From NCBI GenBank assembly GCA_964035575.1, contig OZ037833.1, positions 1,426,001 through 1,490,000 on the forward strand: a stretch of DNA of 64,000 bases, in the 5' to 3' direction. Under the pieces are notes generated by a model. That model saw nothing but the letters and a program-made list of their open reading frames with translations, was not told where the DNA came from and did no database searches. The DNA is from Rhynchopus sp. YZ270_cl-10 (lineage: Eukaryota). The position numbers and the translations under genes are program-made. Below are positions 24,590 to 64,000 of the stretch, in pieces. Each line of letters opens with the position of its first letter. The stretch's first letter is position 1.

Positions 24590-24704
24590 ATTCTTTTCTT
24601 TGTTTTTTATTTTTCAGATTCGGTGCGATTGAAGACTTTCTCTGGACGCATTCTTTTTAAAAACAGGCTTCATTGTATCCTCGGTAGTATAGAGGTCAGT
24701 ATTT

Positions 24705-27133
24705 GGCGACTCACCAGTACAGAATGGTGGAATCCAGCACAGAATGGTGACCCAAAAACCAGCACAGAATGGACGGACTCAGACTTGACCCACTTACAGG
24801 CCAAAAAAAATTTTTCTACACAAAAAATTTTTTTTTTCACAGAGCAAGATTTTTGAGAAAATTTTTCAGGCCAAAACTTTGTCTAACCTGAAAATGACAA
24901 AAAGTTTCACCTACACCAGCCAGTTAACACAACCTAGAACCAGATAACGCTGCCCGAACCCCGCGCACCCGCACAACCACACGAACCAGCTAGTGACCGC
25001 AAACCCGCGCACCCGTCAACCCGCAAACCCGCACAACCACCAGCCAGATAACGCAACCTAGAACCAGTAGGTTCCCGCACACCCGCACCCAAGAGCCAGC
25101 TTATCGACCACACGAACCAGCTAGGGACCGCAAACCCGCGCACCCGTCAACCCGCAAACCCGCACAACCACCAGCCAGATAACGCAACCTAGAACCAGCA
25201 GGGTCCCGTGCACCCGCACCCACCAGCCAGCTTATTAACCACACGAACAACAAAAACTGCACCCTCTGGGGTTTGAACCTCCGACCAGTAGTAATATGTA
25301 GTGTGCGGAACCTGTGTGGTAACCACTAGGACACTATCTCTACTTTAATGGAAATCCTTATTGCTGACGAAGCATCCAAGTGGGCACCACAAGGGTTGTT
25401 CACATTCTATTTTCCCAGTGGTCGGAGGTTCAAACCCCAGAAGCAGCAGTTTTTGTTTCCCCTAACAAATCCTTAAGGAAAAGTGAATTATGGATTGCTA
25501 AGGATTTCCCAGCCATTCCATTCTGTGCTGGTGTTTCAGAAAAGTGCACTTTTTCGTTACGAACCAAAAAAGTGCACTTTTCTGAATCACCAGCACAGAA
25601 TGGAATGGCTGGGAAATCCTTAGCAATCCATAATTCACTTTTCCCTAAGGATTTGTTAGGGGAAACAAAAACTGCTGGTTCTGGGGTTTGAACCTACGAC
25701 ACCGAAGAAACTCTTATGTTTGGAATCTGTGTGCTACACACTGGGACACTTAGTCCGCCTTAGTGAAAATCCTTATGCAAGACAAAGTATCCAAGTGAGT
25801 ACTACACAGGTTCCGTGCACTGTATGAAATTGGTGGTCGGAGGTTCAAACCCCAGAACCAGCAGTTTTTGTTTCCCTTAGCAAATCCTTAAGGAAAAGTG
25901 AATTATGGATTGCTAAGGAGTTCCCAGCCATTCCATTCTGTGCTGGTGTTTCAGAAAAGTGCACTTTTTCGTTACGAACCAAAAAAGTGCACTTTTCTGA
26001 ATCACCAGCACAGAATGGAATGGCTGGGGAATCCTTAAGGATCCATAATTCACTTTTCCCCTAGCAAATCCTTAGGGAAAAGTGAATTATGGATTGCTAA
26101 GGATTTCCCAGCCATTCCATTCTGTGCTGGTGTTTCAGAAAAGTGCACTTTTTTGGTTCGTAACGAAAAAGTGCACTTTTCTGAAACACCAGCACAGAAT
26201 GGAATGGCTGGGAAATCCTTAAGGATCCATAATTCACTTTTCCTTAAGGATTTGTTAGGGGAAACAAAAACTGCTGGTTCTGGGGTTTGAACCTACGACA
26301 CCGAAGAAACTCTTATGTATGAAACCTGTGTGCTACACACTGGGACACTTAGTCCGCCTTAGTGAAAATCCTTATGCAAGACAAAGTATCCAAGTGAGTA
26401 CTACACAGGTTCCGTGCACTGTATGAAATTGGTGGTCGGAGGTTCCAACCCCAGAACCAGCAGTTTTTGTTTCCCTTAGCAAATCCTTAAGGAAAAGTGA
26501 ATTATGGATCACTCAGGATTTCCCAGCCATTCCATTCTGTGCTGGTGTTTCAGAAAAGTGCACTTTTTTGGTTCGGAACGAAAAAGTGCACTTTTTTGAA
26601 ACACCAGCACAGAATGGAATGGCTGGGGAATCCTTAAGGATCCATAATTCACTTTTCCTTAAGGATTTGTTAGGGGAAAAGTGAATTATGGATTGCTAAG
26701 GATTCCCCAGCTATTCCATTCTGTGCTGGTGTTTCAGAAAAGTGCACTTTTTGGTTCGTAACGAAAAAGTGTACTTTTTTGAAACACCAGCACAGAATGG
26801 AATGGCTGCGGAATCCTGAGCAATCCATAATTCACTTTTCCTTAAGGATTTGTTAGGAGAGGAAAAAAAACTCCTGACCCGGGTATTGAATTTCGGATCA
26901 TTTTCTCAGTCAAAATGCCAGCACAGAATGGAAACGAAAAGCCAGTACAGAATGGAAATCAAAAATTTTCTGAAAAACCAGCACAGAATGGAAACGAAAA
27001 GCCAGCACAGAATGGAACACGGCTATAAGGCTCCGACTATTCCATTCTGTGCTGGTTTTTCGTTTCCATTCTGTGCTGGTTTTTTTGGGCCCATTCTGTG
27101 CCAAATTTTGCGGGCCTGTACTGGAGGATGGCC
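24705..27133 (+). mobile_element. Non-autonomous TIR DNA transposon, element A (2429 bp)
   Basis: Ends GGCGACTCACCAGTACAG / CTGTACTGGAGGATGGCC; TSD CAGTATTT at 24697 and 27134; subterminal CCAGCACAGAATGG repeats. Confidence 0.93.
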
Positions 27134-27141
27134 CAGTATTT

Positions 27142-28414
27142 GGCCATACTGACTTACATGGTTATGGGAAAACTTACATGTTTATGGAAAAAACTGACTT
27201 ACATGTTTATGAAAAACATGACTTACATGTTTATTAAGCCGGGGATTTTTGTGTACAAATAAACATGTAAGTCATGTTTTTCATAACCATGTAAGTCATG
27301 TTGAGATTTTTGCCGGTTCATAACCATGTAAGTCATGTTTTTCATAAACATGTAAGTCAGTTTTTTTTTGAGGTCAGGTCGACATTCAATACCCGGGTCG
27401 GGAACATATTTCTGCCACTTAGCCAAAAACTGACTTGTCTCGGGGGTTGAACCCGCTACCATAAGAAAAATTTTACCTGCGTGGTAACCACTCGGCTACA
27501 CTGTCTCATACTTCTCACACAGTTTTTCTGAAGAGGTCCTGACCAAATGCGGGTTCTAGGTTACGTTATCTGACTGGTGGTTGTGCGGGTTTGCGGGTTT
27601 GCGGGTGCGCGGGTTTGCGGGTTCGAGGTTGCGTTATCTGGCTGGTGTGGTAGTGCGGGTGCGCGGGGTTCGGGCAACGTTATCTGGTTCGTGGGTTAAT
27701 AAGCTGGCTGGTGGGTGCGGGTGCGCGGGAACCTGCTGGTTCTAGGTTGCGTTATCTGGCTGGTGTGGTTGTGCGGGTGTGCGGGTTGACGGGTGCGCGG
27801 GTTTGCGGTCCCTAGCTGGTTCGTGTGGTTGTGCGGGTGCGCGGGGTTCGGGCAACGTTATCTGGCTGGTGTGGTTAATAAGCTGGCTGGTGGGTGCGGG
27901 TGCGCGGGAACCTGCTGGTTCTAGGTTGCGTTATCCGGCTGGTGTGGTGGTGCGGGTGCGCGGGGTTCGGGCAACGTTATCTGGTTCGTGGGTTAATAAG
28001 CTGGCTGGTGGGTGCGGGTGCGCGGGAACCTGCTGGTTCTAGGTTGCGTTATCTGGTTCGTGTGGCTGATAGGGTTCTCGGGGGACAGTTACTTAGCTGG
28101 CTCGTGTGCTATGTTATGTGGGTGAACACCATCAGTATCCTTCCCCACGGACTAAGGGTAAAACACTTTGCACACAGACACAAAAATTTTGCCAGAGGTC
28201 TTCATAAGAAATTTTTCACAGGCAAAAAAAAAAATTTTTTTTTCGAACGAGCTTTTTCTGAAGAAAAATTTTTTTTGTGTAGAAAAAATTTTTTGGCCTG
28301 TAAGTGGGTCAACCTGAAAATCCATAAACATGTAAGTTTCCCACCATAAACATGTAAGTCATGTTTTTCCCAAAACATGTAAGTGGATCCCAAAACATGT
28401 AAGTCATGGTCACC
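27142..28414 (-). mobile_element. Non-autonomous TIR DNA transposon, element B (1273 bp)
   Basis: Ends GGCCATACTGACTTACATG / CATGTAAGTCATGGTCACC; TSD CAGTATTT at 27134 and 28415; shares GC-rich repeat module with A in inverted orientation. Confidence 0.9.
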
Positions 28415-28570
28415 CAGTATTTCCGCCTGTCACGCGGAAGACCCGGGTTCAATTCCCGGCCGGGGAACTCTTTTTATGTGTTGTGTTTTCTTCTGTTTCT
28501 CTCTTTTTCTCCGTTTTGGTTGTCCTTTCTCATCGTTCTCATTTCATTTCTAATATAAATCTGTTGGCAA

Positions 28571-28652
28571 GGCAGGATGGCCGAGAGGTCTAAGGCGGAG
28601 GACTCAAGTTCCTTTCTCTTCGGAGGCGTGGGTTCAAACCCCACTCCTGTCA
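28571..28652 (+). tRNA. tRNA-Leu: tRNA-Leu(CAA)
   Basis: Loop CTCAAGT. Confidence 0.95.
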
Positions 28653-28761
28653 CACTTTTTTCCTTCTGTTGTCCAGAATCAATTTTTCAAGGAATCAGTT
28701 TTTTCACAATTTGTTTTTTCTGTCCACATTTTTTTGTGACACAAAATCTCGAAAAAAAGAG

Positions 28762-28833
28762 GGGCTCAGCAGGGAATCGAACCCTGGACCTCTCGCACCC
28801 AAAGCGAGAATCATGCCACTAGACCACTAAGCC
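28762..28833 (-). tRNA. tRNA-Pro: tRNA-Pro(UGG)
   Basis: Loop TTTGGGT. Confidence 0.95.
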
Positions 28834-28954
28834 TTCGTTTTGTACCCATATTCCCATTTTCTTCTGTCCAAAATTTTTTTTATTTTGACACAGTTTTGGA
28901 TTTTGGGCGGTGAATGCACACACCATCTCGTTTCTATGAACCATATAAATGTCA

Positions 28955-29028
28955 GCACCTATGGTCTAGTTGGTTATGACGCCTCGTTAACACCGAGGAG
29001 GTCTCCGGTTCAAACCCGGATAGGTGTA
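28955..29028 (+). tRNA. tRNA-Val: tRNA-Val(AAC)
   Basis: Loop TTAACAC. Confidence 0.94.
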
Positions 29029-29314
29029 CACTTCTTTTTGTGTGTTTGTTTTTTGGCCTTGTATTGCCCATTTTTTTTGGGGGTGAGAGCACATCCGCAA
29101 ACACGTGTCATAATGCTAACGTTTGCGGCTGTGCTACTCTGCCAATTTTTTTGGATTTGGTGAAAAATGGTACCAAAATCAAATCCTGGAGCGATCAGTT
29201 TTTTGTTGCCGGAAGCACATGCGGAAATGGGTGGGAATTCCTTAACATTTCCACATGTGCTTCCTTTTCAGTCCTTTCCATCTCGAACGAACTTTGATCA
29301 GTGGGAACATGAAA

Positions 29315-29620
29315 CAGACTGACTTATGTGTTATGACATAGCATCTCAGCTCAACCTGATTGCAGGCCAAAAAATAATTTTCGGCCAAAATTTTTTTTAA
29401 GTTTTTGTTGCCAGAAGCCATATGCTGAAACTTGCACAACACACAGTGAGCTGTGCGCCCACAACGGAGGGCCTGTTCTGTGCGCCCACAATGGGGGGGT
29501 GTTCTGTGCGCCCATATCGGGGTCTGCGCTGTGCGCCCGACGTACCAAAAAATTTTCGTCCAAAAAATTGGGATGTAGTAGCACAGCGCACTTTTCCAAT
29601 GTAGTAGCACAGCGCACATT
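29315..29620. mobile_element. Decayed relative of elements A/B with TGTGCGCCC repeats
   Basis: ctgactta motif and caggccaaaaaa..tttt module as in A/B; no clear TSD. Confidence 0.45.
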
Positions 29621-29657
29621 GAAAATTGTTATTAGAGTTGAGGGGAAAAAAGAGAAG

Positions 29658-29674
29658 TGCCTCCACCTGGGATT

Positions 29675-29723
<49 letters not shown>

Positions 29724-29730
29724 AAGAGGC
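29658..29730 (-). tRNA. tRNA-Phe: tRNA-Phe(GAA)
   Basis: Loop CTGAAGA. Confidence 0.95.
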
Positions 29731-29808
29731 CTTGTTTTAGGGTATGTATATTTTTTACACGGCCAACATTTTTTGAACAGGCCAAAGCCAAAGTAGTAGA
29801 AAAAGTAT

Positions 29809-29881
29809 TGGTCGTGACAGGGCTCGAACCTGGGACCGTTGGCTTATTAGACCAATGCTCTACCGACTGAGCTACACGACC
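29809..29881 (-). tRNA. tRNA-Ile: tRNA-Ile(AAU)
   Basis: Loop CTAATAA. Confidence 0.95.
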
Positions 29882-29969
29882 GACAATAATGACGAAAGGA
29901 ATCGCCAACCTGGGGTACGCACTATTTTTTTCTATTGTGCACAAAACTGTACATTTTTGCATGACATCA

Positions 29970-30590
29970 TCTTACCGATGTTCCACAATAGCAAAATGGT
30001 CAAAAATGCGAAAACCTTGCGAAAATGGGTTATTTGGGTGCTCTTGAATCCATTATGAGGTTGAACGATGTGATTAGAGCATCAGAAGTACCCTGATCGA
30101 GTTGATGAAAATGACCCAGTAAACTGCCTATTGTACTGCCATTCCACAATGGCAAAAATGGTCAAAAAGGCGAAAACGTTGGGAAAATGGGTTTTTTGAG
30201 CTCTCCTGAATGCATTATGAGGTCAGAATCGCAAATTGGAGCACCAGAAGTGCCCTGATCGAGTTGGCGAAAATGACCCAGTAAAATGACTTTTGTGCCA
30301 CCATTCCACGAATGGCAAAATGTTCAAAAATGTGAAAATATTGGGAAAACGGGTTATTCGGCTGCTCATGAAGCCATTATGAGGTCAGAATCGCCAATTG
30401 GAGCATCAGAAGTGTCCTGATAGAGTTGGTTAAAATGACCCACTAAAATGCCCATTGTACCACTATTGCGCAAGAGCAAAATGCTCAAAAATGTGAAAAC
30501 GTTGGGAAAATGGGTTATTCGGATGTTCCTGAACGCATTATGAGGTCAGACTCGCCAATCGGACCATCACACACATCCTCATCGCTAAAA
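29970..30590. repeat. ~120-bp degenerate tandem repeat of the same family as 23140-23720
   Basis: Recurring cattatgaggtcagaatcgc..ggagcatcagaagtg..aaatgacccagtaaa. Confidence 0.8.
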
Positions 30591-30689
30591 GACCCTCAAA
30601 ATCACAGGTACGACGCAATGGTGTCAGTTCATATTTTTGTGTGTTGACTGTCCCAACCAAAAAATAATCAACAAAATATGGCAAAAAAA

Positions 30690-30761
30690 TGGACATTGAG
30701 GGGTTCGAACCCTCGGCCTCCCGTATGCAGAACGGGCGCTCTACCACTGAGCTAAACGCCC
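30690..30761 (-). tRNA. tRNA-Ala: tRNA-Ala(UGC), C33
   Basis: Loop TCTGCAT, G3:U70. Confidence 0.92.
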
Positions 30762-30874
30762 CTGATAAATGTCCCTCAAGGAGAGGTACTTGGGGCACTT
30801 TCTGTTCGTCTTTTTGTCAATTTTTTTCAAGAACGCAACAAGCCTTGAAATTGACTCTTTCCTTTAAAACGAAT

Positions 30875-30946
30875 GCCCGCCTAGCTCAGCGGTAGAGCGT
30901 TGGACTTTTAATCCAATGGTCGTGGGTTCGATCCCCACGGCGGGTG
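30875..30946 (+). tRNA. tRNA-Lys: tRNA-Lys(UUU)
   Basis: Loop CTTTTAA. Confidence 0.95.
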
Positions 30947-31023
30947 CCTACTTTTTTGGATCAATTGGATTCTCTTTTTTGTGCTCATTTTCAGGATCTG
31001 GGGCGTTGTGCTTCCTCAACTAT

Positions 31024-31105
31024 GCTGACGTATCCAAGTGGTTACGGAGGTGGACTTGAAATCCACTGGGCTCTGCCCGCGCAGGTTCGAACCCTGCCGT
31101 CAGCG
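31024..31105 (+). tRNA. tRNA-Ser: tRNA-Ser(UGA)
   Basis: Loop CTTGAAA. Confidence 0.95.
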
Positions 31106-31219
31106 TTCTTTACCTTTTCGTTTGATTTCTGTGATCTATGTTTTGTCATCAAATGCAGAGATTGAAGATGTGTGTGACAAAGCTCCAAAAAATATTGAAA
31201 ACACTTGGAAAAAGAAAAG

Positions 31220-32889: not shown

Positions 32890-33655
32890 CTTGTGCACCC
32901 GACATACCACCCCTGGCCATATTGGTCAGGCATATTAGTAAGGGTACCTGGTCAGATCTGACCAGGCACCTGGTCACAGTGACTGGGCACAGTAGGAACC
33001 ACAGCTGAAATGGGTGGGGGCTTAAAGCCGTGTTCCAGCATGTGGTTCCTCTTTAGGTCCCAGCATGTAGTACACCCGACATACCACAGCCCAGGCCATA
33101 TTGGTAAGGCATATTAGTAGGGGCACCTGGTCACAGTGACTAGGTAGGTGCACAGAGTGGTTCCTAATCGGGCGCACAGGGGGATATTCCTAATCGGGCG
33201 CACAGGGGGGTAAAGCTAACCGGGCGCACAGGGGGATTCCTAATCGGGCGCACAGGGGGTCGGCCCGCAAACCTGATGATCATATTACCTCTGACCAGCG
33301 CACCGGCCATACTGACTTACATGTTTATTTACTGGGAATTTTGTGAAGAAATAAACATGTAAGTCAGGTTGGGTTTATGAACCTGTTGTAGTCCTAACCT
33401 GACTTACATGGTTATGAAAAACCTGACTTACATGGTTATTAACCCAGGGAATTTTGTGAACAAATAAACATGTAAGTCAGGTTTTTCATAAACACGTAAG
33501 TCAAGCCAAAAACATGTGGCCATACTGACTTACATGTTTATGAACTGGGATTTTTGTGAATAAATACACATGTAAGTCAGCATGGGTTTATAAACATGAT
33601 CATCAAATTTTTTTTCGATTGTGACGGAAGTTGTGACTGAACTGACTTACCATGT
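32890..33655. mobile_element. Decayed repeat/transposon complex including element-B-type end at 33305
   Basis: GGGCGCACAGGGGG repeats, then GGCCATACTGACTTACATG and multiple TGACTTACATG motifs. Confidence 0.6.
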
Positions 33656-34822: not shown

Positions 34823-34894
34823 TTCCCCGGCCGGGAATTGAACCCGGGTCTTCCGCGTGACAGGCGGAAATACTGACCTCTATACTACCGAGGA
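34823..34894 (-). tRNA. tRNA-Asp: tRNA-Asp(GUC), intact (empty allele of 62868)
   Basis: Loop CTGTCAC. Confidence 0.95.
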
Positions 34895-35841: not shown

Positions 35842-36249
35842 GGCCGTACTCCAGTACAGGCCCGAGCGAGTGCTCACAGAATGGGCTCCAAAAACCAGCA
35901 CAGAATGGAATGGCTGGAGACTTATAGGCTTACTGTAAGGATTTGTTAGGAGTGGAAAAAAAAACTCCTGACCCGGGTATTGAATTTTCAGATCATTTTC
36001 TCAGTCACAATGCAAGCACAGAATGGAAACGAAAAACCAGCACAGAATGGAATGGCTGGAGTCTTATAGCCGTGTTCCATTCTGTGCTTGGTTTTGGTTT
36101 CCATTCTGTGCTTGCATTGTGACTGAGAAAATGATCCGAAAATTCAATAGCCAGGTCAGGAGTTTTTCCATCTGAATTATGGATTGCTAAGGATTTCCCA
36201 GCCATTCCATTCTGTGCTGGATTCCACCATTCTGTACTGGTGAGTCGCC
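35842..36249 (-). mobile_element. 408-bp MITE-like derivative of element A
   Basis: Ends GGCCGTACTCCAGTACAG / CTGTACTGGTGAGTCGCC; no 8-bp TSD, not inside a tRNA. Confidence 0.85.
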
Positions 36250-36813: not shown

Positions 36814-37027
36814 TTCTCTTTTTCACTGGGAAGTGAAAATATGGAAAATGATTTTTCAAGATTCTCTCACCATCTTGGGATTTTGGTGACAACAAAGATA
36901 TGGCAAAATACTTTCACAAAAATGCACTTTTCCAAACTTCCTCATCTTGGGATTTTGGTGGTCGAAAAGATGTGGAAATAATTTTTCTAAACAATTCCCA
37001 AGCAAGAAACTACCTAAATAAAAAGAG

Positions 37028-39536
37028 GGGCTCAGCAGGGAATCGAACCCTGGACCTCTCGCACCCGAAGCGAGAATCATGGCGACTCACCAGTACAGAA
37101 TGGTGGAATCCAGCACAGAATGGTGACCCAAAAACCAGCACAGAATGGACGGACTCAGACTTGACCCACTTACAGGCCAAAAAAAATTTTTCTACACAAA
37201 AAATTTTTTTTTTCACAGAGCAAGATTTTTGAGAAAATTTTTCAGGCCAAAACTTTGTCTAACCTGAAAATGACAAAAAGTTTCACCTACACCAGCCAGT
37301 TAACACAACCTAGAACCAGATAACGCTGCCCGAACCCCGCGCACCCGCACAACCACACGAACCAGCTAGTGACCGCAAACCCGCGCACCCGTCAACCCGC
37401 AAACCCGCACAACCACCAGCCAGATAACGCAACCTAGAACCAGTAGGTTCCCGCACACCCGCACCCAAGAGCCAGCTTATCGACCACACGAACCAGCTAG
37501 GGACCGCAAACCCGCGCACCCGTCAACCCGCAAACCCGCACAACCACCAGCCAGATAACGCAACCTAGAACCAGCAGGGTCCCGTGCACCCGCACCCACC
37601 AGCCAGCTTATTAACCACACGAACAACAAAAACTGCACCCTCTGGGGTTTGAACCTCCGACCAGTAGTAATATGTAGTGTGCGGAACCTGTGTGGTAACC
37701 ACTAGGACACTATCTCTACTTTAATGGAAATCCTTATTGCTGACGAAGCATCCAAGTGGGCACCACAAGGGTTGTTCACATTCTATTTTCCCAGTGGTCG
37801 GAGGTTCAAACCCCAGAAGCAGCAGTTTTTGTTTCCCCTAACAAATCCTTAAGGAAAAGTGAATTATGGATTGCTAAGGATTTCCCAGCCATTCCATTCT
37901 GTGCTGGTGTTTCAGAAAAGTGCACTTTTTCGTTACGAACCAAAAAAGTGCACTTTTCTGAATCACCAGCACAGAATGGAATGGCTGGGAAATCCTTAGC
38001 AATCCATAATTCACTTTTCCCTAAGGATTTGTTAGGGGAAACAAAAACTGCTGGTTCTGGGGTTTGAACCTACGACACCGAAGAAACTCTTATGTTTGGA
38101 ATCTGTGTGCTACACACTGGGACACTTAGTCCGCCTTAGTGAAAATCCTTATGCAAGACAAAGTATCCAAGTGAGTACTACACAGGTTCCGTGCACTGTA
38201 TGAAATTGGTGGTCGGAGGTTCAAACCCCAGAACCAGCAGTTTTTGTTTCCCTTAGCAAATCCTTAAGGAAAAGTGAATTATGGATTGCTAAGGAGTTCC
38301 CAGCCATTCCATTCTGTGCTGGTGTTTCAGAAAAGTGCACTTTTTCGTTACGAACCAAAAAAGTGCACTTTTCTGAATCACCAGCACAGAATGGAATGGC
38401 TGGGGAATCCTTAAGGATCCATAATTCACTTTTCCCCTAGCAAATCCTTAGGGAAAAGTGAATTATGGATTGCTAAGGATTTCCCAGCCATTCCATTCTG
38501 TGCTGGTGTTTCAGAAAAGTGCACTTTTTTGGTTCGTAACGAAAAAGTGCACTTTTCTGAAACACCAGCACAGAATGGAATGGCTGGGAAATCCTTAAGG
38601 ATCCATAATTCACTTTTCCTTAAGGATTTGTTAGGGGAAACAAAAACTGCTGGTTCTGGGGTTTGAACCTACGACACCGAAGAAACTCTTATGTATGAAA
38701 CCTGTGTGCTACACACTGGGACACTTAGTCCGCCTTAGTGAAAATCCTTATGCAAGACAAAGTATCCAAGTGAGTACTACACAGGTTCCGTGCACTGTAT
38801 GAAATTGGTGGTCGGAGGTTCCAACCCCAGAACCAGCAGTTTTTGTTTCCCTTAGCAAATCCTTAAGGAAAAGTGAATTATGGATCACTCAGGATTTCCC
38901 AGCCATTCCATTCTGTGCTGGTGTTTCAGAAAAGTGCACTTTTTTGGTTCGGAACGAAAAAGTGCACTTTTTTGAAACACCAGCACAGAATGGAATGGCT
39001 GGGGAATCCTTAAGGATCCATAATTCACTTTTCCTTAAGGATTTGTTAGGGGAAAAGTGAATTATGGATTGCTAAGGATTCCCCAGCTATTCCATTCTGT
39101 GCTGGTGTTTCAGAAAAGTGCACTTTTTGGTTCGTAACGAAAAAGTGTACTTTTTTGAAACACCAGCACAGAATGGAATGGCTGCGGAATCCTGAGCAAT
39201 CCATAATTCACTTTTCCTTAAGGATTTGTTAGGAGAGGAAAAAAAACTCCTGACCCGGGTATTGAATTTCGGATCATTTTCTCAGTCAAAATGCCAGCAC
39301 AGAATGGAAACGAAAAGCCAGTACAGAATGGAAATCAAAAATTTTCTGAAAAACCAGCACAGAATGGAAACGAAAAGCCAGCACAGAATGGAACACGGCT
39401 ATAAGGCTCCGACTATTCCATTCTGTGCTGGTTTTTCGTTTCCATTCTGTGCTGGTTTTTTTGGGCCCATTCTGTGCCAAATTTTGCGGGCCTGTACTGG
39501 AGGATGGCCAGAATCATGCCACTAGACCACTAAGCC
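37028..39536 (-). pseudogene. tRNA-Pro: tRNA-Pro(CGG) split by element A
   Basis: 3' part 37028-37080, 5' part 39510-39536; loop TTCGGGT. Confidence 0.94.
37081..39509 (+). mobile_element. Element A, copy 2 (2429 bp)
   Basis: Same ends as 24705-27133; TSD AGAATCAT at 37073 and 39510. Confidence 0.94.
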
Positions 39537-39630: not shown

Positions 39631-41177
39631 TTCCGCTGCGGGGAATTGGCGACTCACCAGTACAGAATGGTGGAATCCAGCACAGAATGGTGACCCAAAA
39701 ACCAGCACAGAATGGACGGACTCAGACTTGACCCACTTACAGGCCAAAAAAAATTTTTCTACACAAAAAATTTTTTTTTTCACAGAGCAAGATTTTTGAG
39801 AAAATTTTTCAGGCCAAAACTTTGTCTCACCTGAAAATGACAAAAAGTTTCACCTACACCAGCCAGTTAACACAACCTAGAACCAGATAACGCTGCCCGA
39901 ACCCCGCGCACCCGCACAACCACACGAACCAGCTAGTGACCGCAAACCCGCGCACCCGTCAACCCGCAAACCCGCACAACCACCAGCCAGATAACGCAAC
40001 CTAGAACCAGCAGGGTCCCGTGCACCCGCACCCACCAGCCAGCTTATTAACCACACGAACAACAAAAACTGCACCCTCTGGGGTTTGAACCTCCGACCAG
40101 TAGTAATATGTAGTGTGCGGAACCTGTGTGGTAACCACTAGGACACTATCTCTACTTTAATGGAAATCCTTATTGCTGACGAAGCATCCAAGTGGGCACC
40201 ACAAGGGTTGTTCACATTCTATTTTCCCAGTGGTCGGAGGTTCAAACCCCAGAAGCAGCAGTTTTTGTTTCCCCTAACAAATCCTTAAGGAAAAGTGAAT
40301 TATGGATTGCTAAGGATTTCCCAGCCATTCCATTCTGTGCTGGTGTTTCAGAAAAGTGCACTTTTTCGTTACGAACCAAAAAAGTGCACTTTTCTGAATC
40401 ACCAGCACAGAATGGAATGGCTGGGAAATCCTTAGCAATCCATAATTCACTTTTCCTTAAGGATTTGTTAGGGGAAAATTGAATTATGGATTGCTAAGGA
40501 TTCCCCAGCTATTCCATTCTGTGCTGGTGTTTCAGAAAAGTGCACTTTTTGGTTCGTAACGAAAAAGTGTACTTTTTTGAAACACCAGCACAGAATGGAA
40601 TGGCTGCGGAATCCTGAGCAATCCATAATTCACTTTTCCTTAAGGATTTGTTAGGGGAAAAGTGAATTATGGATTGCTAAGGATTCCCCAGCTATTCCAT
40701 TCTGTGCTGGTGTTTCAGAAAAGTGCACTTTTTGGTTCGTAACGAAAAAGTGTACTTTTTTGAAACACCAGCACAGAATGGAATGGCTGCGGAATCCTGA
40801 GCAATCCATAATTCACTTTTCCTTAAGGATTTGTTAGGAGAGGAAAAAAAGCTCCTGACCCGGGTATTGAATTTCGGATCATTTTCTCAGTCAAAATGCC
40901 AGCACAGAATGGAAACGAAAAGCCAGTACAGAATGGAAATCAAAAATTTTCTGAAAAACCAGCACAGAATGGAAACGAAAAGCCAGCACAGAATGGAACA
41001 CGGCTATAAGGCTCCGACTATTCCATTCTGTGCTGGTTTTTCGTTTCCATTCTGTGCTGGTTTTTTTGGGCCCATTCTGTGCCAAATTTTGCGGGCCTGT
41101 ACTGGAGGATGGCCGGGGAATTGAACCCCGGTCTGCCGGGTGAGAGCCGGCTGTTCTAACCACTATACTACAGCGGA
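39631..41177 (-). pseudogene. tRNA-Glu: tRNA-Glu(CUC) split by element A in the B box
   Basis: 3' part 39631-39647, 5' part 41115-41177; loop CTCTCAC. Confidence 0.93.
39648..41114 (+). mobile_element. Element A, shorter copy (1467 bp)
   Basis: Same ends; TSD GGGGAATT at 39640 and 41115; fewer internal modules. Confidence 0.93.
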
Positions 41178-42486: not shown

Positions 42487-42633
42487 AATAATGGGTCTGG
42501 GTGGAAAACCTTTGAAGAGCTTTATATTTCTGAGCTTGTTTTTGCTTCACTTGTGCAAAAGGTCTTGGGTGTTGCATGGTACAGGAAACTTTATTTGTCT
42601 CCCCTGTTCCGCTGCACTCTGCATTAGGTCATT

Positions 42634-43005
42634 TCACCTAAAATAAGGCCAGTTTGCGATCTTCTTGGAGTATCTTGGTGTCCAGTACAGTGTTTCTGGC
42701 ATTGTGGACTTGCATGTTGTACAGGGCAACTGCCTGGGAATTAGTCCCACTTCTTGCAACAGTTTAGCTATTTCGGCATCCCCAGCGCGCATGATATTAA
42801 GCACAGGAGAATTTTTGGCTGCAGGTGCGCACGTCCCTTCTGGGGAGTATGGATGCCTCTTCCTCAGTTTTTGTTGTGCATTTTTGCACCTTTGCGCTCA
42901 TCTCCATCTCACCAAAGGTGAAATTGTGAATGCTGTCATGCAGCATTCACATTCCAGCATGCTCCTGTAGGCTGAAGCACCGTCGGTGGTGTAGTCTCCC
43001 CTCAT
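42634..43005 (-). pseudogene. Possible decayed Zn-ribbon transposase fragment (Merlin/IS1595-like)
   Basis: Frame MRGDYTTDGASAY..CECC..RWR*AQRC..AKLLQEVGLIPRQLPCTTCKSTM..WPYFR*; two TGA stops. Confidence 0.35.
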
Positions 43006-43122
43006 TTCTGCTCTCTGGATAGTGCAACAAACACAGGGATACAAGACAGGGTTGTCTTGTTGGAGGTGGGTCAGGGTCTGGATGTCCTAAAACCACACAC
43101 CAACACGGAAGAAAAGCAAAAA

Positions 43123-53053: not shown

Positions 53054-53398
53054 TCACTTTTGACAATTTTGAAGATTCTCAGAAAGAGTGAGGAGACAAA
53101 AAAATGAGAAAAATCTGGAAAAACCAAAATATATTATTCGTCTCAGGTGTTGAACCCGGGACCGAAAGAATATCGGACCACAGTACAACACACTAGGATT
53201 TTCTGACGCAAGTATTTTTTTAGTTTTTTATGGATGCGCACAGCTAAGAACCGGTCTGACAATTTAGATCTATTTTTCGGTGTATTTATCCAGTTGGTCA
53301 CCCGCGCCAGTACTATCCAGGCTTGGAGGTGTCTAACTTCTCAGGTAAAAACGGACTGGTAATAAGTCTTCCCAGCTTTTCCACCCAGACCTATTATT

Positions 53399-56440: not shown

Positions 56441-56512
56441 TCCTCGGTAGTATAGAGGTCAGTATTTCCGCCTGTCACGCGGAAGACCCGGGTTCAATTC
56501 CCGGCCGGGGAA
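56441..56512 (+). tRNA. tRNA-Asp: tRNA-Asp(GUC), intact (empty allele of 24678-28467)
   Basis: Single CAGTATTT, complete cloverleaf. Confidence 0.96.
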
Positions 56513-56615
56513 CTCTTTTTATGTGTTGTGTTTTCTTCTGTTTCTCTCTTTTTCTCCGTTTTGGTTGTCCTTTCTCATCGTTCTCATTTCATTTCTAATA
56601 TAAATCTGTTGGCAA

Positions 56616-57073: not shown

Positions 57074-57702
57074 CACTTCTTTTTGTGTGTTTGTTTTTTG
57101 GCCTTGTATTGCCCATTTTTTTTGGGGGTGAGAGCACATCCGCAAACACGTGTCATAATGCTAACGTTTGCGGCTGTGCTACTCTGCCAATTTTTTTGGA
57201 TTTGGTGAAAAATGGTACCAAAATCAAATCCTGGAGCGATCAGTTTTTTGTTGCCGGAAGCACATGCGGAAATGGGTGGGAATTCCTTAACATTTCCACA
57301 TGTGCTTCCTTTTCAGTCCTTTCCATCTCGAACGAACTTTGATCAGTGGGAACATGAAACAGACTGACTTATGTGTTATGACATAGCATCTCAGCTCAAC
57401 CTGATTGCAGGCCAAAAAATAATTTTCGGCCAAAATTTTTTTTAAGTTTTTGTTGCCAGAAGCCATATGCTGAAACTTGCACAACACACAGTGAGCTGTG
57501 CGCCCACAACGGAGGGCCTGTTCTGTGCGCCCACAATGGGGGGGTGTTCTGTGCGCCCATATCGGGGTCTGCGCTGTGCGCCCGACGTACCAAAAAATTT
57601 TCGTCCAAAAAATTGGGATGTAGTAGCACAGCGCACTTTTCCAATGTAGTAGCACAGCGCACATTGAAAATTGTTATTAGAGTTGAGGGGAAAAAAGAGA
57701 AG

Positions 57703-57719
57703 TGCCTCCACCTGGGATT

Positions 57720-57768
<49 letters not shown>

Positions 57769-57775
57769 AAGAGGC
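57703..57775 (-). tRNA. tRNA-Phe: tRNA-Phe(GAA)
   Basis: Copy of 29658. Confidence 0.95.
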
Positions 57776-57853
57776 CTTGTTTTAGGGTATGTATATTTTT
57801 TACACGGCCAACATTTTTTGAACAGGCCAAAGCCAAAGTAGTAGAAAAAGTAT

Positions 57854-57926
57854 TGGTCGTGACAGGGCTCGAACCTGGGACCGTTGGCTTATTAGACCAA
57901 TGCTCTACCGACTGAGCTACACGACC
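57854..57926 (-). tRNA. tRNA-Ile: tRNA-Ile(AAU)
   Basis: Copy of 29809. Confidence 0.95.
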
Positions 57927-58734
57927 GACAATAATGACGAAAGGAATCGCCAACCTGGGGTACGCACTATTTTTTTCTATTGTGCACAAAACTGTACATT
58001 TTTGCATGACATCATCTTACCGATGTTCCACAATAGCAAAATGGTCAAAAATGCGAAAACCTTGCGAAAATGGGTTATTTGGGTGCTCTTGAATCCATTA
58101 TGAGGTTGAACGATGTGATTAGAGCATCAGAAGTACCCTGATCGAGTTGATGAAAATGACCCAGTAAACTGCCTATTGTACTGCCATTCCACAATGGCAA
58201 AAATGGTCAAAAAGGCGAAAACGTTGGGAAAATGGGTTTTTTGAGCTCTCCTGAATGCATTATGAGGTCAGAATCGCAAATTGGAGCACCAGAAGTGCCC
58301 TGATCGAGTTGGCGAAAATGACCCAGTAAAATGACTTTTGTGCCACCATTCCACGAATGGCAAAATGTTCAAAAATGTGAAAATATTGGGAAAACGGGTT
58401 ATTCGGCTGCTCATGAAGCCATTATGAGGTCAGAATCGCCAATTGGAGCATCAGAAGTGTCCTGATAGAGTTGGTTAAAATGACCCACTAAAATGCCCAT
58501 TGTACCACTATTGCGCAAGAGCAAAATGCTCAAAAATGTGAAAACGTTGGGAAAATGGGTTATTCGGATGTTCCTGAACGCATTATGAGGTCAGACTCGC
58601 CAATCGGACCATCACACACATCCTCATCGCTAAAAGACCCTCAAAATCACAGGTACGACGCAATGGTGTCAGTTCATATTTTTGTGTGTTGACTGTCCCA
58701 ACCAAAAAATAATCAACAAAATATGGCAAAAAAA

Positions 58735-58806
58735 TGGACATTGAGGGGTTCGAACCCTCGGCCTCCCGTATGCAGAACGGGCGCTCTACCACTGAGCTAA
58801 ACGCCC
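58735..58806 (-). tRNA. tRNA-Ala: tRNA-Ala(UGC)
   Basis: Copy of 30690. Confidence 0.92.
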
Positions 58807-58919
58807 CTGATAAATGTCCCTCAAGGAGAGGTACTTGGGGCACTTTCTGTTCGTCTTTTTGTCAATTTTTTTCAAGAACGCAACAAGCCTTGAAATTGAC
58901 TCTTTCCTTTAAAACGAAT

Positions 58920-58991
58920 GCCCGCCTAGCTCAGCGGTAGAGCGTTGGACTTTTAATCCAATGGTCGTGGGTTCGATCCCCACGGCGGGTG
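58920..58991 (+). tRNA. tRNA-Lys: tRNA-Lys(UUU)
   Basis: Copy of 30875. Confidence 0.95.
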
Positions 58992-59068
58992 CCTACTTTT
59001 TTGGATCAATTGGATTCTCTTTTTTGTGCTCATTTTCAGGATCTGGGGCGTTGTGCTTCCTCAACTAT

Positions 59069-59150
59069 GCTGACGTATCCAAGTGGTTACGGAGGTGGAC
59101 TTGAAATCCACTGGGCTCTGCCCGCGCAGGTTCGAACCCTGCCGTCAGCG
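59069..59150 (+). tRNA. tRNA-Ser: tRNA-Ser(UGA)
   Basis: Copy of 31024. Confidence 0.95.
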
Positions 59151-59264
59151 TTCTTTACCTTTTCGTTTGATTTCTGTGATCTATGTTTTGTCATCAAATG
59201 CAGAGATTGAAGATGTGTGTGACAAAGCTCCAAAAAATATTGAAAACACTTGGAAAAAGAAAAG

Positions 59265-59336
59265 TTCTCCCACGCGGGTTTGAACCGCGGCTACTGGATT
59301 CAAAGTCCAGGGTGCTAACCACTACACCATAGGAGA
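59265..59336 (-). tRNA. tRNA-Gln: tRNA-Gln(UUG)
   Basis: Copy of 31220. Confidence 0.94.
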
Positions 59337-59438
59337 GATAATCCGGATCCTTTTGTTCACACAACAACGATGGAAAATTTGGTGGTTGCAGGTACACACA
59401 AGTACCCCACAATGATTCTTTGATTTAAGTTAATATGA

Positions 59439-59511
59439 GCCTCCCTAGCTCAGTCGGTAGAGCGCAAGGCCCTTAACCTTGTGGTCGCGGGTTCGAGCCC
59501 CGCGGGAGGTG
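59439..59511 (+). tRNA. tRNA-Lys: tRNA-Lys(CUU)
   Basis: Copy of 31394. Confidence 0.92.
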
Positions 59512-59737
59512 CTTTTTGTATTGATACCTGAATTTTTCTGAATTTTTTTTATTTGTTGGAAAACATGGTGTGTTGGTCGTTGTGCAATGAGCCCGCCATC
59601 GTGCGAAATCGTGCCCAAAAAAAATTTTTGGTGGTCACAATTGCGATGATTTTTGGTGATCCCACCCAGACCAAATCGCACTAACTAAGTTGTTAAGCAA
59701 AGTACAAGCTTCGTCCTAAGTACTGACAGGTAATTAA

Positions 59738-59819
59738 GCGGACGTACCCAAGTGGTTACGGGGCTCGCCTGCTAAGCGAGTGTGCTCTGCATGCGCAAGT
59801 TCGAACCTTGCCGTTCGCG
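59738..59819 (+). tRNA. tRNA-Ser: tRNA-Ser(GCU)
   Basis: Copy of 31693. Confidence 0.95.
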
Positions 59820-60072
59820 TTTTTTATACACTGCATTGATACCTTTTTTCATTCTTTTCTGAACTTTTTCAAACTCAAAAAAAAACCTGAAAAAATCTGT
59901 TTTATCTTCAGGTCAAGAATCTCCAAGTTAGGACAACATTCAAGATGTTTGGTTTTTTTGGTGAGACAACCTTGGAAATCCTGAACAATAGTTTCAACAT
60001 CAAGATGACACACAACTTGGGTTTTTAGCTCAAAATCAAAAATAGAGTCAAAAACTCAAAAAAATGAAAAAT

Positions 60073-60145
60073 CTCCTCCTGTTGGGTTCGAACCAACGAC
60101 CTGCAGGTTAACAGCCTGACGCGCTACCGACTGCGCCAAGGAGGA
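60073..60145 (-). tRNA. tRNA-Asn: tRNA-Asn(GUU)
   Basis: Copy of 32028. Confidence 0.95.
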
Positions 60146-60259
60146 TCTGATTGTTAGCGAAGACAGCATTTACATGGGGACCTTATTCAAAACGAAAACA
60201 CACACAAGGAATGATGGAAACTTATGGCCTTGGTACGAAGAGAATGCGAGAGAATTCGT

Positions 60260-60331
60260 GGCTCGGTGGTCTAGTGGCATGATTCTCGCTTAGGGTGCGA
60301 GAGGTCCGGGGTTCAATTCCCCGCCGAGCCC
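60260..60331 (+). tRNA. tRNA-Pro: tRNA-Pro(AGG)
   Basis: Copy of 32215. Confidence 0.95.
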
Positions 60332-60428
60332 TTGTCTTTTTGGATTTTCATTTTTATTTATTTTTTCGTTTGAAATTCCGTGTTCCTTGCACAAAAGTAC
60401 CCTTTTTGGATTGTGCCTAAGTATCACC

Positions 60429-60500
60429 TCCCCTTTAGTACAGTGGTTAGTATACCTGGCTTTCACCCAGGCGACCCGGGTTCAAACCCCGGAGGGGGAA
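60429..60500 (+). tRNA. tRNA-Glu: tRNA-Glu(UUC)
   Basis: Copy of 32384. Confidence 0.95.
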
Positions 60501-60637
60501 TCCTTTTTGATTGCTTTCAAATTTCGGAGCTGTTTTTTGATATTTTCATATTTCTGAATTTTCAATTTGGCAAAGTTTTGTGACAAGAAATCTCTGAGAA
60601 GGAGGAAATCTAAAAATATTTTGGAATGAACAAAAAG

Positions 60638-60709
60638 TACTCGCGGCGGGGATCGAACCCGCAACCTCCGGCGTCGGGAACCGACGCGCTTCCATTGCGC
60701 CACGCGAGC
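60638..60709 (-). tRNA. tRNA-Arg: tRNA-Arg(CCG)
   Basis: Copy of 32593. Confidence 0.88.
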
Positions 60710-61864
60710 TTATCTTGTTTCCCAAGATCTCAGATTATGGAGAAGGTTTGGCAGTGTCTAAAAAAGTTCAAAAAGTGATAAAACAGCCAGTGTCCCTTGG
60801 TGCATGACTGGTTGTACTGTGGTGGACCCGTGCACTTTCCATACAGTCCTATGCCAGAAAACCCACACACAATGGGTTTGTGGGTTTTCTACATCCACTG
60901 TACCTGTGCATAAGATAACCCATCGTGAAACTCCCTTGTGCACCCGACATACCACCCCTGGCCATATTGGTCAGGCATATTAGTAAGGGTACCTGGTCAG
61001 ATCTGACCAGGCACCTGGTCACAGTGACTGGGCACAGTAGGAACCACAGCTGAAATGGGTGGGGGCTTAAAGCCGTGTTCCAGCATGTGGTTCCTCTTTA
61101 GGTCCCAGCATGTAGTACACCCGACATACCACAGCCCAGGCCATATTGGTAAGGCATATTAGTAGGGGCACCTGGTCACAGTGACTAGGTAGGTGCACAG
61201 AGTGGTTCCTAATCGGGCGCACAGGGGGATATTCCTAATCGGGCGCACAGGGGGGTAAAGCTAACCGGGCGCACAGGGGGATTCCTAATCGGGCGCACAG
61301 GGGGTCGGCCCGCAAACCTGATGATCATATTACCTCTGACCAGCGCACCGGCCATACTGACTTACATGTTTATTTACTGGGAATTTTGTGAAGAAATAAA
61401 CATGTAAGTCAGGTTGGGTTTATGAACCTGTTGTAGTCCTAACCTGACTTACATGGTTATGAAAAACCTGACTTACATGGTTATTAACCCAGGGAATTTT
61501 GTGAACAAATAAACATGTAAGTCAGGTTTTTCATAAACACGTAAGTCAAGCCAAAAACATGTGGCCATACTGACTTACATGTTTATGAACTGGGATTTTT
61601 GTGAATAAATACACATGTAAGTCAGCATGGGTTTATAAACATGATCATCAAATTTTTTTTCGATTGTGACGGAAGTTGTGACTGAACTGACTTACCATGT
61701 CGAGCAAAAACCCGCATCAGACAAAAAAAAAATTTCTCCACTAAGAATCCTTACGCAAGAAAGAGTACACATCATTTCCACTTTTTCGTTTTGAACGAGT
61801 TTGTGACCGACCTGAAACCGTCCGAAACCATATTGTTTTGCTTTTTCCAATCGCAAAAAGAGAG

Positions 61865-61935
61865 TGCGTAATCCGGGAATCGAACCCGGGCCGACCCCGT
61901 GGCGGGGGGCCATTCTACCACTAGACCAATTACGC
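61865..61935 (-). tRNA. tRNA-Gly: tRNA-Gly(GCC)
   Basis: Copy of 33820. Confidence 0.9.
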
Positions 61936-62051
61936 TACGATATTAGTCGAAATTGTGCTCGAGTTGCCGCTCGTTGCATGGTTGAAAAATATTTCACAAT
62001 ATCCCTCGAAATAAAACCCTTTCTGAGATCCCAATAAGTGGGAATATTCAA

Positions 62052-62123
62052 GCGGTTATGGTTTAGTGGTTAGAACACCCGTTTGTGGCACGGGAGACCC
62101 GAGTTCAATTCTCGGTAACCGCT
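62052..62123 (+). tRNA. tRNA-His: tRNA-His(GUG)
   Basis: Copy of 34007. Confidence 0.94.
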
Positions 62124-62211
62124 TTTTTAGCTGTACAATCAACCGTCTAAATTTTTTTTCAACTCCAAAAATATGCAGGCCACATAAAAAATACTATTGC
62201 CTAAAGACATG

Positions 62212-62283
62212 GACCGTGTGGCTCAATGGAAGAGCGCCTGACCACGGATCAGGCGGTTGCAGGTTCGAGTCCTGCCACGGTTG
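62212..62283 (+). tRNA. tRNA-Arg: tRNA-Arg(ACG)
   Basis: Copy of 34167. Confidence 0.92.
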
Positions 62284-62372
62284 CTTCTTTTTTTAGGCAA
62301 TTTGAAGAATTTGAAATTATTTTCATTTTGAAATCGCCCCTCACAAAGAAAACACTTTGCATGAAAGTAACA

Positions 62373-62444
62373 GCACTTATGGTATAACGGTTAGTATTCT
62401 CGCCTTCCAAGCGAGCGGCCCGGGTTCGACTCCCGGTAAGTGCA
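62373..62444 (+). tRNA. tRNA-Gly: tRNA-Gly(UCC)
   Basis: Copy of 34328. Confidence 0.95.
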
Positions 62445-62732
62445 GTTCTTTTTTTAAAGGGGGAAGCAAAATTTTCATGTTCAGAAAATTTTTTCTGAAA
62501 TGTCAGCTTTTCAAAGAATTTCCAGTTTTCAAGTTTTTCCTTCAAAAATTTTTCAAGGTTCTTATGGGTGGGTTGACTACCAAAAAATCCAAAATCCCGG
62601 GGTGACCCCTTCCCACTGGACCCAATGTTTTTATCTGTTGTGACTGTAACTTGTCACTGTAATTCATTTGACACCAACCTCTCACTTTTTTGTGTTTTCA
62701 AAAAAGTTCAAAAAAACAATGTTCAAAAAGTT

Positions 62733-62805
62733 AACCCCGTGCGGGACTCGAACCCGCAACCTTTGGATTCGAAGTCCAACGCGCTATCCATTGCGCCAAC
62801 GGGGC
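62733..62805 (-). tRNA. tRNA-Arg: tRNA-Arg(UCG)
   Basis: Copy of 34688. Confidence 0.95.
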
Positions 62806-62867
62806 CTGATTTGATTTTCATCAGAAAAGAAACGAAACAATGAGTGGGAGCCCTGTACAAAAAAGAA

Positions 62868-62920
62868 TTCCCCGGCCGGGAATTGAACCCGGGTCTTCCG
62901 CGTGACAGGCGGAAATACTG
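62868..62920 (-). pseudogene. tRNA-Asp: 3' part of tRNA-Asp(GUC) interrupted by element A
   Basis: Matches 34823-34875, then switches to the element end at 62921. Confidence 0.93.
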
Positions 62921-64000
62921 GGCCATCCTCCAGTACAGGCCCGCAAAATTTGGCACAGAATGGGCCCAAAAAAACCAGCACAGAATGGAAACGAAAAACC
63001 AGCACAGAATGGAATAGTCGGAGCCTTATAGCCGTGTTCCATTCTGTGCTGGCTTTTCGTTTCCATTCTGTGCTGGTTTTTCAGAAAATTTTTGATTTCC
63101 ATTCTGTACTGGCTTTTCGTTTCCATTCTGTGCTGGCATTTTGACTGAGAAAATGATCCGAAATTCAATACCCGGGTCAGGAGTTTTTTTTCCTCTCCTA
63201 ACAAATCCTTAAGGAAAAGTGAATTATGGATTGCTCAGGATTCCGCAGCCATTCCATTCTGTGCTGGTGTTTCAAAAAAGTACACTTTTTCGTTACGAAC
63301 CAAAAAGTGCACTTTTCTGAAACACCAGCACAGAATGGAATAGCTGGGGAATCCTTAGCAATCCATAATTCACTCTTCCCCTAACAAATCCTTAAGGAAA
63401 AGTGAATTATGGATCACTCAGGATTTCCCAGCCATTCCATTCTGTGCTGGTGTTTCAGAAAAGTGCACTTTTTCGTTACGAACCAAAAAAGTGCACTTTT
63501 CTGAAACACCAGCACAGAATGGAATGGCTGGGAAATCCTGAGTGATCCATAATTCACTTTTCCTTAAGGATTTGCTAAGGGAAACAAAAACTGCTGGTTC
63601 TGGGGTTGGAACCTCCGACCACCAATTTCATACAGTGCACGGAACCTGTGTAGTACTCACTTGGATACTTTGTCTTGCATAAGGATTTTCACCAAGGCGG
63701 ACTAAGTGTCCCAGTGTGTAGCACAGGTTTCATACATAAGAGTTTCTTCGGTGTCGTAGGTTCAAACCCCAGAACCAGCAGTTTTTGTTTCCCCTAACAA
63801 ATCCTTAGGGAAAAGTGAATTATGGATTGCTAAGGATTTCCCAGCCATTCCATTCTGTGCTGGTGATTCAGAAAAGTGCACTTTTTTGGTTCGTAACGAA
63901 AAAGTGCACTTTTCTGAAACACCAGCACAGAATGGAATGGCTGGGAAATCCTGAGTGATCCATAATTCACTTTTCCTTAAGGATTTGCTAAGGGAAACAA
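62921..64000 (-). mobile_element. Element A, copy 4 (runs off window)
   Basis: Starts GGCCATCCTCCAGTACAG directly after AAATACTG (rc of CAGTATTT); far end not visible. Confidence 0.9.

Follow-up and report, generated by a model that had tools for sequence, protein, structure and literature searches.

Gene-less transposons with terminal inverted repeats inside tRNA genes of a Rhynchopus RNA-gene array, and a possible role of RNA polymerase III in their targeting

Two families of non-coding transposons, referred to as element A and element B, were found inside tRNA genes on contig OZ037833.1 of Rhynchopus sp. YZ270_cl-10, which raises the question of whether these insertions reflect ordinary local movement or a system that selects tRNA genes and, within them, one position. 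The analysis covered 64,000 nucleotides of this contig (positions 1,426,001 to 1,490,000, referred to as the window), representing eukaryotic DNA with a tandemly repeated cluster of non-coding RNA genes. All five young insertions were located inside tRNA genes, four of them at nucleotides (nt) 20-27 and one at nt 56-63 of the tRNA. The elements themselves are real TIR transposons of the cut-and-paste type, and a true preference of A and B for tRNA genes is likely; it is possible, with doubt prevailing, that the RNA polymerase III (Pol III) machinery sets the insertion site.

Insertion sites and end architecture of elements A and B

The insertions, their target site duplications (TSDs), the terminal inverted repeats (TIRs) they carry and the remnants in the spacers are as follows:

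24697-24704, plus strand: first copy of the TSD CAGTATTT, closing the 5' part of tRNA-Asp (24678-24704)
24705-27133, plus strand: A1, 2429 bp, non-coding, TIRs 14/18 nt, in tRNA-Asp(GTC) at nt 20-27
27134-27141, plus strand: second copy of CAGTATTT, between A1 and B
27142-28414, minus strand: element B, 1273 bp, TIRs 14/19 nt, opposite to A1 and in the same target 8-mer
28415-28422, plus strand: third copy of CAGTATTT, opening the 3' part of tRNA-Asp (28415-28468)
33305-33600, plus strand: two truncated B-type end remnants (33305 and 33518), in a spacer and in both array copies
35842-36249, minus strand: mini-A, 408 bp, with both ends and no TSD, in a spacer
37073-37080 and 39510-39517: TSD of A2, AGAATCAT
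37081-39509, plus strand: A2, located at nt 20-27 of tRNA-Pro(CGG) (minus strand, 37027-39536)
39640-39647 and 41115-41122: TSD of A3, GGGGAATT
39648-41114, plus strand: A3, 1467 bp, internally shorter, in the B box (nt 56-63) of tRNA-Glu(CTC) (minus strand, about 39631-41177)
62921-64000, minus strand: A4, truncated where the window stops, at nt 20-27 of the second tRNA-Asp

A preliminary description of this DNA had placed element A in tRNA-Asp, tRNA-Pro(CGG), tRNA-Glu(CUC) and a second tRNA-Asp, and all of these coordinates hold. For the first Asp gene, the extent given for A1 was correct, and the insert runs on to 28414 with element B, the layout being A1, TSD, B, TSD with three copies of CAGTATTT in all. 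The 8-bp TSDs reported there are exact at the three complete A copies, and cutting out the insert together with one TSD restored tRNA-Asp(GTC), tRNA-Pro(CGG) and tRNA-Glu(CTC) in 3/3 cases (ARAGORN). Among the complete young copies, an 8-bp TSD was present at 4/4, its length being set by four different junctions, and a single TSD copy (62913-62920) is visible for A4. A2 is 100% identical to A1 over 2429 bp, and mini-A represents a fifth copy of A.

The proposed target, nt 20-27 starting 1 nt after the GG of the A box, was likewise borne out in the Asp, Pro and second Asp genes, as was the insertion in the B box of Glu (nt 56-63). In both Asp and Pro, the target 8-mer lies 1 nt past the D-loop GG and 23 nt before GGTTC. 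The two 8-mers differ in sequence and both orientations occur, as had been described: within the tRNA gene, A1 and A4 are oriented alike in tRNA-Asp, and A2 and B are oriented oppositely. A test for a shared target sequence was negative, as similarity among the targets did not exceed that among random sites (p = 0.41, 0.43 and 0.21 for flanks of 0, 4 and 8 nt, respectively).

Element B features its own pair of ends and has internal repeats in common with A; a transposase-like open reading frame was found in neither A nor B. The ends of both elements follow a similar plan, namely nine variable terminal bases starting with GG, followed by a family-specific repeat at +10/+30/+55 with the same spacing from each end (CCAGCACAGAATGG in A and ACTTACATG in B). 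GG starts 6/6 ends of A, mini-A and B, and the matching terminal nucleotides of the TIRs (14/18 and 14/19) are followed by mirrored repeats to approximately +65. Judged by these sequence features, A and B look like sister families with diverged putative transposase-binding sites.

The right end of A also matches the 5' end of tRNA-Leu(CAA) over 9 bases, which may be chance. The ends of B match the 5S rRNA gene at 21636-21755 with their first 9 (27142-27150) and first 8 bases (28407-28414), where the background for GG-starting words is 0.5% and 1.4%, respectively, and chance may again account for the match. Furthermore, spacer remnants of a third repeat-ended family were detected in the tRNA block (33147-33265 and 29442-29545), featuring a CTGTGCGCCC motif every ~25 nt and one GGCC-starting end.

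Age and polymorphism of the insertions

Two empty alleles within the window served as controls:

34823-34894, minus strand: empty allele of the second tRNA-Asp gene, array copy 1
56441-56513, plus strand: empty allele of the first tRNA-Asp gene, array copy 2

For each Asp gene, one array copy contains a filled allele and the other an empty one. Outside the insertions, the two array copies match over 11,211 bp without a difference (100%), which indicates that the insertions are very young. Public sequencing data were also consulted, and 66-78% of the words of a 3.1-kb piece were present in eight public runs from five studies, none of those listed being an RNA data set. Contigs bridging the empty Glu site were obtained in 3/4 runs examined, originating from three studies, and the left junction of mini-A was present in 4/4 runs examined, in one of them by 8 letters only. 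At the Pro site, the run contigs end 3-5 letters beyond the TSD, too few for calling the site empty. The right end of A (39464-39509) was uncovered in the four runs examined, a gap from which no conclusion was drawn. The filled and empty Asp alleles, the empty Glu site in the runs and the shared mini-A junction together indicate that the in-gene insertions are young and polymorphic, and that mini-A is older. Scans of metagenome contigs and viral contigs for the element ends or the 5S gene returned no match.

Compared to A1, A4 shows 24 base differences and 2 small gaps, has three alleles in common with A3 and is not followed by B; on these grounds, a recent origin of A4 by copying from A1 is unlikely. 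Much of the difference could originate from shuffling of the internal repeats, since 25-mers not found in A1 occur at only three spots of A4 and the last 454 bp show no difference.

Internal tRNA-type promoter cassettes

Both elements harbor predicted tRNA-type promoter cassettes:

25250-25333, minus strand: cassette t1 (A box, B box, T5) in A1, also present in A2 and A3
25373-25455, plus strand: cassette t2, perfect B box and weak A box, divergent from t1
25665-25870: cassettes t3 (minus strand) and t4 (plus strand), divergent pair
27425-27498, minus strand: A-box/B-box/T5 cassette of element B

Matrices for the A and B boxes were derived from 46/48 tRNA genes (two were skipped), and pairs scoring at least 15 were recorded. 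Five such pairs were detected in A1 and one in B. Random sequences (200 per element) gave 0.055 and 0.03, respectively, and no such pair occurred in the non-tRNA remainder of the window after masking. The t3/t4 pair is repeated at ~26264-26469 with one variant B box; the cassette with the variant B box comes in addition to the five scored in A1. The B boxes of these five are perfect, and that of element B is off by one base. Spacing between A and B box amounts to 45-54 nt (tRNA range 42-55), with T5 following ~12 nt past the B box. Across cassette types, the boxes are kept and the stretch separating them varies, and none of the cassettes formed a cloverleaf on folding. The predicted cassettes fit the layout of a type 2 Pol III unit, similar to short interspersed nuclear elements, with A box, B box and T-run in this order.

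Sub-threshold microRNA-type Rfam hits on hairpins of A and B were dismissed as generic hairpin matches. A free-standing degenerate A-box/B-box module resembling the cassettes occurs at 21375-21450 and 53140-53215 (both minus strand); it lies near a partial inverted 5S piece and scores below the cassette threshold of 15.

Superfamily assignment and a transposase-like piece

Elements of the hAT and P superfamilies begin with CA or TA, and those of MuDR begin with G and mostly have 9-bp TSDs. Under these end rules, hAT and P are ruled out by the GG ends of A and B, and a MuDR lineage with 8-bp TSDs may be compatible with them. Merlin elements have been described to feature terminal GG, 8- or 9-bp TSDs of variable sequence, TIRs of 24-462 bp that are sometimes very imperfect, internal tandem and inverted repeats, and several families with different TIRs in one genome (PMC8101967). 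A and B resemble them in their GG ends, 8-bp TSDs and internal repeats, and may do so in their imperfect TIRs, and the Merlin/IS1016-like anatomy suggested in the preliminary description agrees in ends, TSD length and internal repeats with the accessible part of that source (PMC8101967); unlike autonomous Merlin elements, they lack a transposase. The word tRNA is absent from the main text of the Merlin paper, no tRNA preference is described there, and internal Pol III boxes go unmentioned in its accessible part (PMC8101967). Both elements are probably of Merlin type.

One protein-coding remnant in the window bears on this assignment:

42637-42897, minus strand: decayed, putative Merlin/IS1595-like transposase N-terminal piece, between two 5S genes

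This piece looks like the zinc-ribbon region at the N terminus of Merlin/IS1595 transposases; its residues 30-87 reached a score of 0.97 to a eukaryote cluster in a language-model atlas, and 19 atlas hits scoring at least 0.9 carry PF12760. Its read-through form gave two weak, irrelevant rows in NCBIfam, and tblastn against plasmids was empty. The phmmer hits P0010 and P0012 were rejected as unrelated repeat proteins, P0011 being the same locus. The ENA proteins with TGA read as Trp extend into the 5S gene; they were regarded as artefacts of gene calling and not as a sign of a recoded genome. An upstream element of the U6/SRP type (SRP, signal recognition particle) at 43041-43078 directly precedes the stretch with the piece (42560-43020) in sense direction, and the locus may give rise to a host Pol III transcript that consists of transposon sequence.

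Preference for tRNA genes and proposed mechanism

With the inserts removed, 48 tRNA genes of 43 types (ARAGORN) reside in one 12,339-bp block, and tRNA genes account for 29.1% of this emptied tRNA block and 10.7% of the emptied window. All chance figures given here are post hoc, and the window was chosen from a very large scan. For three gene types, all of them tRNA genes, p was 0.0012 against the window and 0.025 against the block, which supports insertion into tRNA genes above chance (3/3 gene types). Three gene types combined with one shared offset gave p values of ~5e-5 and ~1e-3, respectively, and five events all in tRNA genes gave 1.4e-5 and 0.002 before offsets are considered. The claim of a strictly fixed position goes further than the data: only two target sequences (Asp and Pro) agree at nt 20-27, and Glu, at nt 56-63, is an exception.

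In the reading preferred here, gene-less Merlin-type elements are mobilised in trans and guided to tRNA genes by Pol III; the whole chain is held tentatively, at slightly under an even chance. Of this chain, anatomy, sites and recency (ends, TSDs, empty alleles and youth) were observed directly. The transposase of each family would be encoded elsewhere and bind its own subterminal repeat at +10/+30/+55. The excised element would then be brought to the tRNA array by TFIIIC on the internal B boxes, comparable to the repeats of Pokey in ribosomal DNA (rDNA), and would insert mostly in an exposed AT-rich stretch directly following the A box on its 3' side (nt 20-27), with both orientations allowed and occasional hits at other places in the gene. 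At nt 20-27, the 8-mers of Asp and Pro rank with the 7/48 richest in AT, a post hoc and weak signal. Broken genes would be cheap, because the array is multicopy, and would be purged by turnover, with only spacer remnants becoming fixed. Element B used the same Asp 8-mer as A1 in the other orientation, despite its different subterminal motif, and in this reading the landing spot is probably set by the position within the Pol III gene, not by the target sequence. A further-reaching proposal, that a Merlin TIR lineage independently evolved position-based tRNA targeting, directly 3' of the A box in different tRNA genes and irrespective of their sequence, with the predicted TFIIIC-binding cassettes of the sister families as homing signal, is considered rather unlikely.

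Several points weigh against Pol III guidance. Only two different target sequences (Asp and Pro) share the offset, and three of the four events at nt 20-27 concern tRNA-Asp and may lack independence. A3 lies in the B-box core at another offset; a B-box core bound by TFIIIC is expected to be shielded DNA, yet the Glu gene was hit there. The insertions A1, A2, A3 and B fall into a 17-kb stretch, the pattern that hopping over short distances would produce. Mini-A and the two B-end remnants reside in spacers, and if these three remnants are counted too (5/8 in tRNA genes), p becomes 0.0006 against the window and 0.05 against the block; as events, however, they are fixed remnants filtered by survival. 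The A-box subclass shared by the hit genes (p 0.03-0.08) points to a reading of sequence, two cassettes have poor A-box scores (-2.3 and 1.9), and mini-A contains no cassette. An autonomous partner of A and B was not found in the window. The transposase-like piece owes its identification to one language-model tool, the atlas, whose error rates for protein parts are unmeasured. A longer query reached only 0.83-0.89 in it, and the piece has no Pfam match, no credible NCBIfam match, no real sequence relative and no DNA similarity to A or B. Lacking such a link or a true relative, it indicates at most that the superfamily is present in the genome.

Alternative explanations

The alternative that survives best, although unlikely in our judgment, is local hopping of ordinary non-autonomous Merlin-type elements in an open, tRNA-dense array, with the Asp site being partly one event copied by recombination, B having inserted at the end of A and the Pro match being luck. 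It is in accordance with the 29% share of tRNA genes in the block, the spacer remnants of A, B and other repeat-ended families, the identity of A1 and A2, the clustering of all copy-1 insertions within 17 kb, the different offset in Glu and the choice of the window from a very large scan. However, A4 differs from A1 and lacks B, the homology between the Asp genes is limited to the 72-nt gene, and even three events lead to p ~1e-3 for all being in tRNA genes with one shared offset. Moreover, selection should deplete gene insertions rather than enrich them, and hopping leaves the internal B-box cassettes unexplained. In the accessible part of a further source, insertion of maize Mu and fly P at tRNA genes does not exceed that at random loci (PMC7337890).

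It is improbable that a transposase reads sequence in the manner of the tRNA-gene transposon Dada, recognising the A-box subclass T.GT.TAG and cutting 1 nt past the GG with no host factor. The Asp, Pro and Glu genes are all members of this subclass, which comprises 14/43 gene types (p = 0.03), and their summed A-box identity of 20/24 is reached by 7.7% of triples; in addition, Dada has been argued to read primary sequence (PMC8869645). Both figures are post hoc and weak, though, and the A box of Glu nearly equals that of Asp, yet the Glu gene was hit 36 nt further on. Both orientations, and two families with different end motifs at one site, also speak against such a rule.

Targeting of DNA structure, with hairpins extruded from transcribed tRNA genes as the target, appears still less probable. 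Each of the three TSDs starts within the 3' portion of a loop of the cloverleaf (D, D and T) and covers the 3' stem strand, and this is the sole explanation that also covers Glu. On the other side, it concerns three sites noticed post hoc, and A and B are rich in strong hairpins, none of which contains a nested copy. An assembly artefact in the repetitive array, as might be suspected from the two 100%-identical 2429-bp copies and the 100%-identical array copies, is hardly credible, given that every copy comes with an exact 8-bp duplication of its own, derived from the host gene, that A3 and A4 deviate from A1, and that mini-A and the internal repeats were recovered in independent runs.

The RNA-gene array and its further features

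The array hosting the insertions and one recurrent unit of no assigned identity are located as follows:

7169-62806, tandem: supercluster of non-coding RNA genes, comprising tRNA, 5S, U2, U4, U5, U6 and SRP genes
250-640, 7910-8300 and 15185-15575, minus strand, and 21805-22202, plus strand: unit of ~330-400 nt following a U6/SRP-type upstream element

In total, 76 intact tRNA calls, six 5S genes and genes for U2, U4, U5, U6 and SRP were detected in the window. One block gene called Ser by ARAGORN represents an intron-bearing Tyr gene; a Leu-TAA gene is absent among the ARAGORN calls of the block, and no U1 gene was found in the window. A description of such an RNA-gene array was not found in the literature, most subscription journals being outside the search scope.

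The U2 genes at 7494, 14769 and 44721 all read GTGTATTATCTG, and their branch-point-pairing motif is GUAUUA in all three, compared to the consensus GUAGUA; this may reflect a changed branch-point rule. The upstream element ~25 nt before the U6 and SRP genes recurs before the ~330-400-nt unit, of which two versions occur (87% alike). No Rfam match was obtained at the one copy tested, and the unit is a candidate unannotated Pol III RNA. An open frame of ~135 amino acids interrupts a 401-bp tandem repeat at 6228-6636 and 13503-13911 (both minus strand). We take it to resemble the part behind the reverse transcriptase in site-specific elements without long terminal repeats (LTRs); it gave no Pfam match and no sequence match.

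Comparison with known targeting systems

To our knowledge, few eukaryotic DNA transposons target strictly, namely Dada and, in a looser sense, Pokey, and Merlin is a TIR superfamily with no known target rule. According to the accessible parts of the sources, Dada occupies an orthologous position (nt 8-13, A box) within the tRNA genes of several isotypes (PMC8869645), has no TIRs and generates a 6-7-bp TSD (PMC3706591); nt 8-13 or the anticodon arm is targeted, and related families share the target sequence (PMC3706591, PMC8869645). A and B are like Dada in occupying tRNA-gene bodies at one orthologous position across isotypes, in tandem insertion at one site and in the existence of non-autonomous derivatives. 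Unlike Dada as described there, they have TIRs, an 8-bp TSD, insertions at nt 20-27 or 56-63, both orientations and no shared target sequence. They share the niche of Dada but fail membership in it. The earlier statement that no such system had been described was therefore too strong, since Dada already uses one orthologous tRNA position (PMC8869645); A and B depart from Dada in their superfamily (TIRs, 8-bp TSD), in where they insert and in having internal Pol III boxes. A TIR transposon targeting tRNA gene bodies was not found in the literature, with Repbase, most subscription journals and supplements outside the scope of the search.

Pokey and mPok (piggyBac) in the 28S rDNA of Daphnia represent a TIR element with MITEs (miniature inverted-repeat transposable elements) in a multicopy RNA-gene array and also outside the array, as is the case for A and B (PMC3849761). 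Pokey carries spacer-derived repeats as a possible nucleolus guide (PMC3849761), and these repeats from the host array are the closest parallel to the internal boxes of A and B. Unlike A and B, Pokey is tied to a single sequence within a Pol I gene, and captured repeats are missing from its MITEs in the accessible part of that paper (PMC3849761). In A and B, the boxes are found on the gene-less elements themselves, and insertion takes place in Pol III genes.

The yeast retrotransposon Ty3 inserts at Pol III starts. The bacterial p-MULT transposons TnGBS and ISLre2 insert at a fixed distance from promoters, for which contact with the transcription machinery has been proposed (PMC3942029, accessible part). 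A and B probably resemble both in a site defined by promoter distance and not by sequence. TnGBS and ISLre2 are bacterial, however, and Ty3 is an LTR retrotransposon; all of them insert upstream and spare the gene, whereas A and B break it.

If only local hopping is involved, the insertions represent an ordinary MITE burst in an unusual array. If the further-reaching proposal of a homing Merlin lineage is true, A and B would represent the first case of a TIR cut-and-paste system that the Pol III machinery guides into a gene body, in an array that packs nearly all tRNAs, 5S, U2, U4, U5, U6 and SRP into one repeat. If they find tRNA genes by position, they would constitute a third route into the niche of multicopy RNA genes, would allow a direct test of whether a transposon is steered by promoter boxes on the donor side, a possibility raised but not settled for Pokey, and could provide a host-factor-guided cut-and-paste integrase.

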